DNA of 63,917 nucleotides from an uncultured Gammaproteobacteria bacterium (GCA_964570525.1 CAZMYO010000007.1:1-63917); one strand, 5' to 3'; numbered from the stretch's first letter, positions 430-59,310 are shown. Notes: generated by a model not told the origin, from the letters alone. Numbers and translations: made by a program.

Positions 430-535
430 ACTTGGGGGGCATTGTCCTCCCCTTACTAAGGGGAGGCTGGGAAGGGGTCTTAACGAAGACCTCCCCTCGC
501 CCCTCCTTGATAAGGAGGGGACAAATATAACCTGA
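430..535. repeat. GC-rich composite palindromic element (two CCTCC..GGAGG hairpins)
   Basis: cctccccttactaaggggagg and cccctccttgataaggagggg hairpins are separated by ~35 nt. Related elements occur at 14636-14705, 19035-19070, 20248-20270 and 29205-29257. Confidence 0.7.
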
Positions 536-2716: not shown

Positions 2717-2754
2717 GATACACACCCCTACCCCTCTTTTTAGAGGGGAATTCG
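2717..2754. repeat. ACACnCCnACCCCTCTTTTTAGAGGGGA palindromic element, copy 1 of 3
   Basis: gatacacacccctacccctctttttagaggggaattcg. Near-identical copies occur at 29258-29294 and 49737-49774. Confidence 0.85.
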
Positions 2755-2766
2755 AATTGACCGGCG

Positions 2767-3729
2767 CTAAATACTCCCAACAAATAAATCGATCAGGAGT
2801 GACTGATCAGCCTGGCCGGTTTTTGTCTTAATATCAATATCAAGCAGGCGCTCGTACATTTGCTCAATTTTCCGGAGCGGATAGCGCTTGGCAATTGCCA
2901 TATTTTTTCTGGCCACAAACGGGTGGATGCCTAATTTTTTAGCCAGAATTTCACTGGAGACGGAGCCTTCCCGCTCCAGGGCATCGGCCATTTCCAAAAT
3001 AATTCTAAATTGCCATACCAGCAAACCAAACAAGCGCGACTCTTCTTCGCCCTGGCGGCGCTGTTCTTCTAATAATTTAAAGGCCAGCTTGTGGTTGCCG
3101 GCAACAATCGCGTCAACCATGTTAAAAGCATTGTCATCCACCTTCTCTTCCAAAAAAAGCTGGACAGCGGCAAAAGTAATAGCGCCGTTTCTCTGGTACG
3201 CAACTAGCTGATCGATGGTTGAATTTAAAAACCAGAGATCGTGTCCGCCGTTTTGGCAAAGATACGCGAGGGCTTGGTCTTCAATTTTTCCACCGCGCCC
3301 CTCGACTTCATTCTTTACCCAAGCCGATAATTTCGCTCCGGTAAGCGGGGCGAATTCCTGCGCGTACTTTTCTTTCGCCAAAATTCCTTGGAGCTCTTTG
3401 GCTTCTTTAACTTTACTCAAAGCCTCGCCCTGCCAAAAAATAATAATATTGCTCTCCGGCAGGCGATGGTTTTTAACGCGATCGGCAAGTTCTTGAAGCA
3501 GTTCTTTGTCGCTACTCGCTAAAACGTTATTCACAACCACCAAACGCCGCTCGGCCAAAAAAGGCGCGGCGACCATCTCACTCAAAATCCGCCCCGCTTT
3601 TTCTTTTTGCCCGTCTAGCAAAACCACGTTGTAGCCTTGCGGGTCGCGGTCGCGTTTGAACTTTTCAATAGATTGTCTAAGATACTGGCGGCTACGGAAA
3701 GTGTCGGCGCCGTGGAGAAAGATGATCAT
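2767..3729 (-). CDS. holA: DNA polymerase III delta subunit (HolA)
   Basis: 320-aa ORF beginning MIIFLHGADTFRSRQYL. Size and layout match clamp-loader delta. The call is by overall resemblance, not a strict motif. Confidence 0.7.
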   Translation of the reverse strand: MIIFLHGADTFRSRQYLRQSIEKFKRDRDPQGYNVVLLDGQKEKAGRILSEMVAAPFLAERRLVVVNNVLASSDKELLQELADRVKNHRLPESNIIIFWQGEALSKVKEAKELQGILAKEKYAQEFAPLTGAKLSAWVKNEVEGRGGKIEDQALAYLCQNGGHDLWFLNSTIDQLVAYQRNGAITFAAVQLFLEEKVDDNAFNMVDAIVAGNHKLAFKLLEEQRRQGEEESRLFGLLVWQFRIILEMADALEREGSVSSEILAKKLGIHPFVARKNMAIAKRYPLRKIEQMYERLLDIDIKTKTGQADQSLLIDLFVGSI

Positions 3730-27729: not shown

Positions 27730-27767
27730 ATAAGTCAAAAGTCTGTAAAGTCGAAAGTCCGTAAAGC
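27730..27767. repeat. AAAGTC short-repeat array
   Basis: taagtcaaaagtctgtaaagtcgaaagtccgtaaagcgg. Confidence 0.75.
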
Positions 27768-27830
27768 GGTGTGATTTACAGTCATAAGAATATACCACAA
27801 TTCACAGGTAAGTCAATGAATGATATACTA

Positions 27831-27868
27831 TGAAAGTCGAAAGTCTATAAAGTCTTAAAGTTAAAAGG
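27831..27868. repeat. AAAGTC short-repeat array
   Basis: tgaaagtcgaaagtctataaagtcttaaagttaaaagg, directly upstream of mgtC. Confidence 0.75.
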
Positions 27869-28326: not shown

Positions 28327-29682
28327 TCAAGGGTGGATTTGATCAGTCCCGAGCGGGCTGGTTTTTTCTTTGCGCGCGATGAGTACAAGCGCCGCGAGAA
28401 TCCACCAGAGCATTGCCAAATCGTTTTTAAAATACGGCACGTCAACTAGTCCGTGGATAATGATTGCGGTAAAAGCGGCGATGAGTCCCGCGCCGAGAAT
28501 TTTATTTTGGTGTCGGTAGATTTTGTAAGCAGTAAGCGCTAGGCAGTAAGCAATAAGCGTGAACGAGAGCATGCCGGCGAGGCCGGTTTCCGTCCAAAAG
28601 TTTAGGAAAATATTGTGCGGGTAGATGAGGCGCTCCAATTCCTTAACATTATAAAAAGGTTTTTGCACTTTGCGGAAAAATTGTCGAATACCCGTTCCCA
28701 AAATAAAATTTTTGGGTGAGGAAACAAGATAGGTCCCAGTATACGACCACAGAGCAAGGCGGTTAGCGCCAGATTGGTTTTTAGCGGTAAGAAGTTGTTG
28801 GGCCAGGGGTGTTAAGGAAAACAGAAGACAAAGAACCGTGAAGCCGCCAACGATTTTTTTATAACCAAGCAACCATCCAAATACCAACATCCCCGCGCCA
28901 ACACCAACCCAGGCCCCGATTGAACGGGAAAGAAGCAGGGTGATAAAGGAGAAGGTGAAGATGAGGCCAAGAATAATTTTTTTGTTTCGGTTATGCTCCC
29001 AGAGCAACAGATAGGCTATTAAGGGAACGATGGGTCCGAGGTAGAGCCCGACTGCGTTTGGCGAAAGAAAAAACGAGGTTACACGTCCGGTTTGAAGAGC
29101 CGTCCAATCAACATTGCCAATGTGCCAGCCGGTAAAGTGCTGGACGATGCCAAATAGCGAGATGCTGAACGTAGAAAGAGCGAGGAACCAGATGAGGTCG
29201 GAGACACTTAAATCCCTCCTAGTAAGGAGGGTGGGGAGGTGTTGGCTAACGCGTGTCGAACACACCCCCACCCTTCTTTCTAGAGGGGAATTTGTTCGGC
29301 CAAGCAACAGCACAAACACCGCCATCGGTTCTAAGAAGTAGGCTCGCCACTGGCCAAGTGACGCGTACCACATGTCGCTCACGAAGATGCTTGCGATTGA
29401 CGCGAGAAAAAACAAAAAACAAAAAACAAAAAAAACTTTGTTGTTGGAGATCAGGTATCGTATGGCGGGCCAGTCGGAGCGGGCGAATTTTATAAGCCAG
29501 ACGAGAAATAAAATTCCGAAAGAGACTTCAAGGAGAGTGGTGGGTAGCGCTCCGACACTGAAGCGGATTAGGTAGGTTGGGAGGGAAATAATAAAAAGTC
29601 CGACGGCAAAACGGAAGCTGTGCCAGGTCAGAGCAATAAGCAATAAGCAATAAGCAATAAGCAACGGGTAGAGAAGCGGCAT
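28327..29682 (-). CDS. O-antigen ligase (Wzy_C) family polytopic membrane protein
   Basis: 451 aa with ~11 hydrophobic helices and a large loop region. It contains an in-frame palindromic-repeat insert. Confidence 0.6.
   Translation of the reverse strand: MPLLYPLLIAYCLLLIALTWHSFRFAVGLFIISLPTYLIRFSVGALPTTLLEVSFGILFLVWLIKFARSDWPAIRYLISNNKVFFVFCFLFFLASIASIFVSDMWYASLGQWRAYFLEPMAVFVLLLGRTNSPLERRVGVCSTRVSQHLPTLLTRRDLSVSDLIWFLALSTFSISLFGIVQHFTGWHIGNVDWTALQTGRVTSFFLSPNAVGLYLGPIVPLIAYLLLWEHNRNKKIILGLIFTFSFITLLLSRSIGAWVGVGAGMLVFGWLLGYKKIVGGFTVLCLLFSLTPLAQQLLTAKNQSGANRLALWSYTGTYLVSSPKNFILGTGIRQFFRKVQKPFYNVKELERLIYPHNIFLNFWTETGLAGMLSFTLIAYCLALTAYKIYRHQNKILGAGLIAAFTAIIIHGLVDVPYFKNDLAMLWWILAALVLIARKEKTSPLGTDQIHP
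29205..29295. repeat. composite palindromic element inserted in frame in the O-antigen-ligase-like gene
   Basis: ccctcctagtaaggaggg hairpin followed by cgaacacacccccacccttctttctagaggggaatttg (copy 2 of the 2717/49737 element). It is translated as NSPLERRVGVCSTRVSQHLPTLLTRRDLS. Confidence 0.8.
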
Positions 29683-49736: not shown

Positions 49737-49774
49737 CCAACACATCCCTACCCCTCTTTTTAGAGGGGATTACC
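49737..49774. repeat. ACACnCCnACCCCTCTTTTTAGAGGGGA palindromic element, copy 3 of 3
   Basis: ccaacacatccctacccctctttttagaggggattacc. Confidence 0.85.
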
Positions 49775-50277: not shown

Positions 50278-50322
50278 ATTAGTCCGTAAAGTCATAAAGT
50301 CTATAAAGTCGGAAAGTTTTTA
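50275..50322. repeat. AAAGTC short-repeat array
   Basis: tagattagtccgtaaagtcataaagtctataaagtcggaaagttttt. Confidence 0.75.
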
Positions 50323-52474: not shown

Positions 52475-52515
52475 CAAAAAATATCCTCCGCCTAGGCGGA
52501 GGATATTTTTCTTTT
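52475..52515. terminator. bidirectional terminator
   Basis: aaaaaatatcctccgcctaggcggaggatatttttctttt. Confidence 0.85.
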
Positions 52516-59266: not shown

Positions 59267-59310
59267 GTAGAGACGTAGCGCTGTAGAGACGTAGCGCGCT
59301 ACGTCTCTAC
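59267..59310. repeat. 28-nt perfect palindrome GTAGAGACGTAGCGCGCTACGTCTCTAC preceded by an extra half copy
   Basis: Read directly from the sequence. It lies between the convergent PBP1A and ruvB genes. Confidence 0.85.

Follow-up and report, generated by a model that had tools for sequence, protein, structure and literature searches.

How does a short palindromic repeat that is dispersed between genes come to lie inside an open reading frame that it leaves uninterrupted, and what kind of element is it? The question is raised by the window analysed here, a 63,917-nt stretch of DNA that represents contig C7 of a 1.06-Mb genome assembled in 67 contigs (48% GC). The initial annotation had reported a ~38-nt element occurring three times in the window, twice between genes and once within an ORF on the minus strand (Table 1). 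Indeed, a 20-nt core, ACCCCTCTTTTTAGAGGGGA, is found at positions 2730, 29270 and 49750, as compared with 0.02 occurrences expected from shuffled sequences, and an independent repeat-family search of the window returned the identical three copies (family D4). Both intergenic copies were recovered, with their boundaries refined as listed in Table 1, and the third is read through without a stop as NSPLERRVGVCSTRVSQHLPTLLTRRDL, which is exactly the peptide given originally. A CCCTCC..GGAGGG hairpin said to precede the third copy is present, but is not a separate hairpin, being the inverted half-unit B of the same composite, which is supported by nhmmer and covariance model (CM) matches. The hairpins at 430-535, to which it had been likened, are similar to the extent that the segment 446-520 belongs to a related subfamily, whose stem arms measure 7 nt (CCTCCCC/GGGGAGG and CCCCTCC/GGAGGGG), and has the same succession of pyrimidine tail, 2-3 nt linker and hairpin as the 29209-29292 element, but they constitute a different element.

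Table 1. Host gene and palindromic units in the window, numbered from its first nucleotide
Feature	Coordinates	Strand	Details
Host gene, 451-aa Wzy_C / O-antigen-ligase (WaaL-like) polytopic membrane protein, intact	28327..29682	-	Pfam PF04932 1.6e-13
In-frame composite element	29209..29292	-	28 codons N131-L158 of host ORF; inverted B, 12-nt spacer, A
Half-unit A, CGAACACACCCCCA-CCCTTC-TTTCTA-GAGGGG-AATT	29257..29292	+	CM R1 51.6 bits, E 6e-10
Half-unit B, CAACACCTCCCCA-CCCTCC-TTACTA-GGAGGG-ATTT	29210..29244	-	CM R1 54.1 bits, E 1.5e-10
Solo A half-unit, intergenic	2720..2752	+	15 nt downstream of stop of ORF 2767-3729(-)
Solo A half-unit, intergenic	49737..49771	+	between divergent ORFs
Related head-to-head composite, other subfamily, intergenic	446..520	.	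adjoins tRNA genes

The basic unit is about 36 nt in length (12 codons) and consists of C(G/C)AACAC followed by a pyrimidine tail, of a 7-bp hairpin joined to this tail by 2-3 nt of linker, and of A(A/T)T, with the hairpin made up of a 6-nt pyrimidine arm, its purine complement and a closing T-A pair around a 4-nt loop. Subtype A has the tail ACACACCCC and stem arms CCCCTC/GAGGGG, subtype B has the tail ACACCTCCC and stem arms CCCTCC/GGAGGG, and a minor third subtype has stem arms CCCCCC/GGGGGG. In an alignment of 28 units, 98.5% of the stem cells are paired, and three of the seven stem pairs show compensatory double changes between subtypes; such covariation was matched by none of 500 shuffles. 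Genome-wide, the units are found either solo or as A+B doublets, the latter being arranged head-to-head (inverted B, spacer, A) or tail-to-tail (A, 3 nt, inverted B). Since B is inverted relative to A in the host gene, the insert constitutes a head-to-head doublet, 84 nt or 28 codons in length. As RNA, it is predicted to form a single, imperfectly paired hairpin with a stem of about 30 bp (-44.3 kcal/mol, z = -3.5), and its two arms of ~35 nt pair with each other, yielding the terminal inverted repeats characteristic of MITEs. The closest copy of the insert, at C22:11785-11867, is 92% identical, and the spacer CYAACGCGTGT is common to both, indicating that the doublet was copied as a unit. Consensus units are open in four of the six frames, while the two closed frames contain the TAA/TAG of the loop. 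Screening against Rfam at the gathering score recovered tRNAs only, with far-sub-threshold matches of the insert to generic miRNA hairpins, and assignment to a known RNA family was rejected.

In most subtypes, the tail is a mirror image, rather than a complement, of the 5′ stem arm, as in CCTCCC-TA-CCCTCC, CCCCCC-TA-CCCCCC and, in the A type of a relative, CTCCCC-AA-CCCCTC. The window subfamily at 446-520 provides another case, CCTCCCC-TCG-CCCCTCC at 490-506, and in this genome's own A type a purine stands where the mirror would have T (29260-29276 in the window; the B type is at 29213-29231). This layout of tail and stem corresponds to the classical intramolecular pyrimidine-purine-pyrimidine triplex arrangement, and the mirrored tail would endow the element with a potential for triplex (H-DNA-like) or G4/i-motif formation. 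In some doublets, an additional internal module, the hairpin CTCCGATTCGCATCGGAG, separates the B hairpin from its tail; doublets with extra or longer modules were seen at C65:13077-13130, C23:1411-1480 and C5:18900-18930, and a longer doublet variant with the spacer GTGAGCTGCCGAGAG...CGCATCC is common to the relative G113. The extra hairpin module and the longer spacer variant indicate that the elements are modular.

The host protein has 2173 homologues, with 64% identity for the best; the top homologues carry the labels Candidatus Magasanikbacteria/Patescibacteria, and the gene order Wzy_C-MgtC-UppS is conserved on orthologous contigs. An AlphaFold2 model built with a 120-orthologue alignment has a pLDDT of 91.3 and a pTM of 0.92, and its top fold match in the PDB is WaaL (7tpg_B, E 1.6e-7, TM 0.58/0.64). 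Residues N307, R308, P355 and H356, invariant across the 120 orthologues, are placed on a periplasmic loop, and the ORF thus combines the Pfam domain, the WaaL-like polytopic fold and the conserved periplasmic His/Arg loop of a Wzy_C/O-antigen ligase. Residues 131-160 are modelled mostly as coil (block pLDDT 64, 50 and 68) flanked by helices 105-128 and 160-184, so the placement of the insert between two hydrophobic segments, noticed at the outset, corresponds in the model to a low-confidence coil (pLDDT 50-68) linking two transmembrane helices. Judging from the helix count back from the periplasmic loop with the invariant residues, and from the positive-inside rule, this loop would be cytoplasmic. 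Most likely, the 84-nt doublet is transcribed and then translated as a disordered loop of 28 residues, rich in Arg, which, lying between two transmembrane helices and away from the periplasmic catalytic loop, should be tolerated rather than useful.

Comparison with orthologues bears out the expectation of a lineage-specific insert: the loop bounded by the conserved GR and DL residues comprises 7 residues in 73 and 5 residues in 6 of the 120 orthologues, and 32 residues here. About 40 of the 120 have loops of 12-53 residues, filled with peptides resembling translated palindromes of several families (SPLERR/PLGRGG, SPSYQEGVGGV, VIPAKAGI...FRRND and CHSHNNGNP...SRFGGEDR). We inspected the DNA of three syntenic orthologues at this site. 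In P0008, the codon position that corresponds to the insert is occupied by two A units, the first of them inverted, on either side of a 60-nt spacer; a single unit is present in P0001, and P0006 has a differing arrangement. A switch from an A to a B unit at the same position was also noted. It had been reasoned that the idea of an insertion would fail if orthologues lacking the DNA repeat still had the same peptide segment, and this was not found, as the longer-loop orthologues hold their own palindromes at the site. The first 22 nt of the P0008 and window copies are identical, including two derived changes, and this left-arm identity extends to synonymous positions, although the two proteins are only 56-57% identical. 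Such identity, which pure neutral decay of an old insertion does not predict, points to nucleic-acid constraint, gene conversion or re-insertion at the site. From the sequences compared, the insertion site appears either to be old and occupied or to have been hit repeatedly. As regards a target-site duplication, the AAT/ATT bordering the insert is part of the inverted repeat, and the nearest homologue for an empty-site comparison is 64% identical. In addition, orthologues P0005, P0007, P0010 and P0017 have peptides of the IASEAKQSR... type in a second variable loop (host residues ~228-236, alignment columns 270-300), which represents another permissive loop with another in-frame palindrome family.

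Successive regular-expression, nhmmer and covariance model searches of the 1.06-Mb genome revealed 39 half-units at 25 loci. Twelve of these loci are located wholly within ORFs, and in all 12 the frame is kept and contains no stops, in agreement with the initial annotation. Pfam or PDB evidence backs the identification of LigA, SecA, TsaD, PPDK/PEP synthase, an ELP3-like radical-SAM enzyme and an RlmI-like methyltransferase as hosts; LigA has two doublets, one of them in the zinc-finger loop, and TsaD has one doublet and one solo unit. The inserts are missing from the solved homologues, namely E. coli LigA (2owo), M. tuberculosis SecA1 (1nkt) and E. coli TsaD (4ydu). Nine of the 13 loci that are not fully intragenic are found at a stop codon or no more than 24 nt after it, and at four of these nine the TAA is provided by the element itself. 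The five solo units at gene 3′ ends all share the same polarity on the mRNA strand. A mostly extragenic, 3′-end placement holds for solo units and for those nine loci, while 9 of the 14 doublets (about two thirds) are intragenic. Copies in stop-containing frames occur only at gene ends. Overall, in a genome with a coding density of ~0.89, copies survive in three places: between genes, at the extreme 3′ ends of genes, and at stop-free in-frame sites within genes. A role as an uptake signal was rejected in view of ~39 copies per Mb and patchy occurrence.

The element is unevenly represented among relatives. A search with the exact pattern yielded 19 copies in this genome versus 0-1 in each of 60 relatives, and, of 100 genomes belonging to the same GTDB family, 24 contained covariance model matches and 76 had none; this genome had 37 matches, and three relatives had 40, 14 and 11. 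The distribution is thus patchy, with bursts in a few genomes. In element-bearing relatives, doublets are likewise in frame within long ORFs, and SecA of one relative contains two inserts, one of them at the position occupied in SecA of this genome, but arranged head-to-head instead of tail-to-tail. LigA proteins were compared across 30 family genomes; about 20 of them show the short basal form at both insertion sites, and the remainder have palindrome-like peptides of several unrelated families at those same two sites. The relative G081 contains a 131-nt MITE with perfect terminal inverted repeats of ~20 bp (GTAACTATTCAGTTCTTTCC) and a central doublet of the same superfamily, present in at least five identical copies with unrelated flanks (L006:1490-1619, with L007, L008 and L009). 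These identical copies were rejected as proof of transposition of the doublet, which in this case is cargo of the 131-nt TIR-MITE.

A RAYT transposase was considered for the mobilising activity and rejected. The sole Y1_Tnp/RAYT-like gene of the genome, on contig C62 (PF01797, 5.7e-9), has canonical GTAG palindromes on its flanks; these, GTAGAGACG...CGTCTCTAC, constitute a family apart, with ten copies. The presence of Y1_Tnp showed no correlation with element load across 100 relatives. Three copies of the GTAGAGACG...CGTCTCTAC family surround this gene (C62:53935-54611), and a tandem copy is found in the window at 59267-59310. Neither a cognate RAYT gene flanked by units of the element nor any other gene bracketed by a pair of units, as would be the case for an autonomous parent or a parent IS with the same ends, was found in this genome. 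The motif C(T/C)AC immediately precedes the stem on its 5′ side, and the 5′ end of the stem-loop does not bear GTAG/GTGG (or CGTC); this places GT(A/G)G on the 3′ side, in a polarity which is the reverse of that in GTAG REPs. The resident transposase with its own GTAG REP, the lack of correlation with load, the lack of a bracketed gene and the reversed polarity together put the element outside of the REP-RAYT family.

We consider it very likely that the insert represents a single copy of a non-autonomous palindromic repeat, dispersed and REP/BIME-like (or REPIN/MITE-like), which is filtered for reading frame when copies fall into genes. Insertion would be blind to genes, and selection would subsequently purge copies that land elsewhere or in the two stop-containing frames, leaving survivors in spacers, at extreme 3′ ends in any frame, and in permissive loops in open frames only. 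Since the unit is open in four of six frames and its length is a multiple of three, many insertions into permissive loops should be harmless, and intragenic survival of such selfish DNA would require placement that is stop-free, frame-preserving and confined to a permissive loop. The spread itself may proceed through hairpin-dependent single-strand transposition or recombination, supplied in trans. Among the observations that count against this reading are the failure to tie a transposase to the element and the left-arm identity between distant orthologues. A more specific proposal, which we regard as rather unlikely, is that the elements are recognised by hairpin-directed, possibly triplex-directed, machinery common to Patescibacteria, which inserts, replaces or homogenises units at occupied codon-level sites. 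It would explain why the Wzy_C, LigA and SecA loops hold different arrangements and families in different genera, as well as the synonymous-site identity of the arm between orthologues ~56-57% identical, the stem covariation, and the mirroring of the stem arm by the tail.

Could the hairpin instead be a selected nucleic-acid signal, such as an mRNA 3′-end stabiliser or terminator, a protein-binding site or a triplex/G4 structure, with the intragenic copies being useful in themselves? The compensatory changes which preserve the stems, the uniform polarity of all five 3′-end solo units, several of them no more than 24 nt from the stop, the identity of the 22-nt arm at synonymous positions between distant orthologues, and the mirrored pyrimidine tail in most subtypes all fit such a signal, but 76 of 100 family genomes, and most orthologues at every occupied site, lack the element. 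Moreover, unrelated palindrome families occupy the identical permissive loops in other genera, both polarities coexist within intragenic doublets, and a genome contains merely ~39 units, so that we view a selected signal as improbable.

Selection might act on the peptide rather than on the nucleic acid, making the 28 residues an adaptive lineage-specific loop of the O-antigen-ligase-like enzyme, possibly exapted from the repeat. An Arg-rich segment on the presumed cytoplasmic side agrees with the positive-inside rule, and occupation of the site by an element seems to go far back in the clade; nevertheless, the same peptide classes appear in the unrelated soluble LigA, SecA, TsaD, PPDK and ELP3-like proteins, most orthologues do without the segment, and AlphaFold2 models it with low confidence, mostly as coil, all of which renders this explanation very unlikely. 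Even less probable is an intervening sequence that is cut from the mRNA or bypassed by the ribosome and never appears in the protein. Ribosomal bypassing is exemplified by T4 gene 60 and by mitochondrial ‘byp’ elements, Patescibacteria are known for intervening sequences in their rRNA genes, and a strong hairpin in a coding region would suit either process. However, a sequence that is removed or bypassed needs to be neither stop-free nor in frame, and all 12 intragenic loci are both, an outcome with a chance probability of ~2e-6 for the frame alone at 1/3 per locus; furthermore, copies with a stop-containing frame are restricted to gene ends. The notion of a dead or mis-assembled ORF with accidental read-through, including the pseudogene split at this point that the initial annotation had allowed for, is practically negligible despite the 67 contigs of the assembly, because the protein is full-length and retains all 34 columns invariant across 120 orthologues, the fold is confident, synteny is conserved, and orthologous contigs from independent samples hold elements at the same site.

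A dispersed repeat filtered for frame, the reading we prefer, has several counterparts among known systems. The closest in behaviour are the Rickettsia palindromic elements (RPEs), which lie in frame in many genes (Ogata et al. 2000, as summarised in PMC10969869 and PMC3733652). To the extent that these summaries describe them, they share with the present element the dispersed palindromic repeat in a small genome, the many in-frame stop-free copies in unrelated housekeeping genes, and the reading as additional loops compatible with the fold, and differ from it in host phylum and in length, which is 100-150 bp for RPEs, as opposed to 36-nt units and 75-93-nt doublets here. The polypyrimidine/polypurine hairpins and the solo units acting as ordinary 3′-end REPs are further differences. 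As multicopy dispersal, in-frame copies in unrelated conserved ORFs and a permissive-loop insert missing from orthologues are all observed, the element displays RPE-type behaviour, and, because its length and composition differ from those of RPE-1 to RPE-10, the likeness is claimed for behaviour only. The RPE-like behaviour proposed in the initial annotation is thereby supported, but in-frame palindromic repeats are known beyond Rickettsia too: intragenic REP dimers encoding 20-30 residues were described in Opitutus terrae, Thauera and others, with DNA ligase among the hosts (Di Nocera et al. 2013, PMC3733652).

In organisation, the element resembles REP/BIME/REPIN sequences (PMC3733652; Bertels and Rainey 2011, PMC3116915) in its 20-40-nt hairpin units, which occur as singles and as inverted dimers of two subtypes, and in favouring positions just past stop codons, a known preference of REPs (PMC3733652), with the element at times providing the stop. 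Like intragenic GTAG and CGTC REPs, its dimers within genes encode 20-30 residues and have DNA ligase among their hosts. It departs from canonical GTAG REPs in its reversed polarity, with C(T/C)AC 5′ of the stem, and from REP-RAYT systems in having no RAYT flanked by these units, the resident RAYT-like gene being associated with the GTAGAGACG family. With bacterial MITEs, which were reviewed in PMC10969869 and are capable of in-frame fusions, it shares small size, lack of coding capacity, terminal inverted repeats, multiple copies and patchy occurrence among relatives; unlike MITEs, it has no parent IS with the same ends that could be found here, and its unit also occurs solo and in the permuted tail-to-tail order typical of REPs. 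We therefore file it as REP/BIME-like in organisation and RPE-like in behaviour. In-frame selfish palindromes are already known from RPEs and REPs, and a literature search found no published description of such elements in Patescibacteria/CPR.

The presence of selfish DNA inside protein-coding genes of Rickettsia is usually regarded as an oddity. Here, RPE-type behaviour is seen in a second, unrelated lineage with reduced genomes, that of an ultra-small Patescibacteria/CPR bacterium, where it affects core enzymes such as DNA ligase in its zinc-finger loop, SecA and TsaD, and where the same protein loops are reused across genera by several unrelated repeat families. If this is general, much of the protein length variation in Patescibacteria would consist of translated repeats, with a bearing on gene annotation, alignments, trees and structure prediction, and it would help to explain how repeat DNA comes to be tolerated or recruited where genomes are tiny and selection is weak. 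The inserts also represent tractable natural loop-insertion experiments in essential proteins.

Further palindrome-like peptides were noted in frame in other places of this genome: VIASKAKQSPSRS...NKGIAASADANRFPRNDK in the RlmI-like ORF (C5:13699-15057), LRAERSNPPEIAMSVVSSNLLAMTE in an ORF at C9:3193-4338, LLRRSFSEAS, present twice, in a SufC-like ORF (C54:21958-22938), and QTTDYRLQQTTNKTVVRSPS in TsaD (C15:4285-5469). Their occurrence in genes hosting the element indicates that several repeat families colonise genes in this genome. Two other kinds of repeats were encountered in the window. A hairpin, TCCTCCGCCTAGGCGGAGGA, with flanking A/T runs is located at 52484-52503 and recurs at C13:16744, C56:1019, C65:9309, C62:44924 and C29:787; it looks like a shared bidirectional intrinsic terminator. 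Short direct repeats of the AAAGTCNNTAAAGTC type (families D3 and D5), which may be promoter or regulatory repeats, are found near tRNA genes at 204-242, 27731-27862 and 50279-50318.
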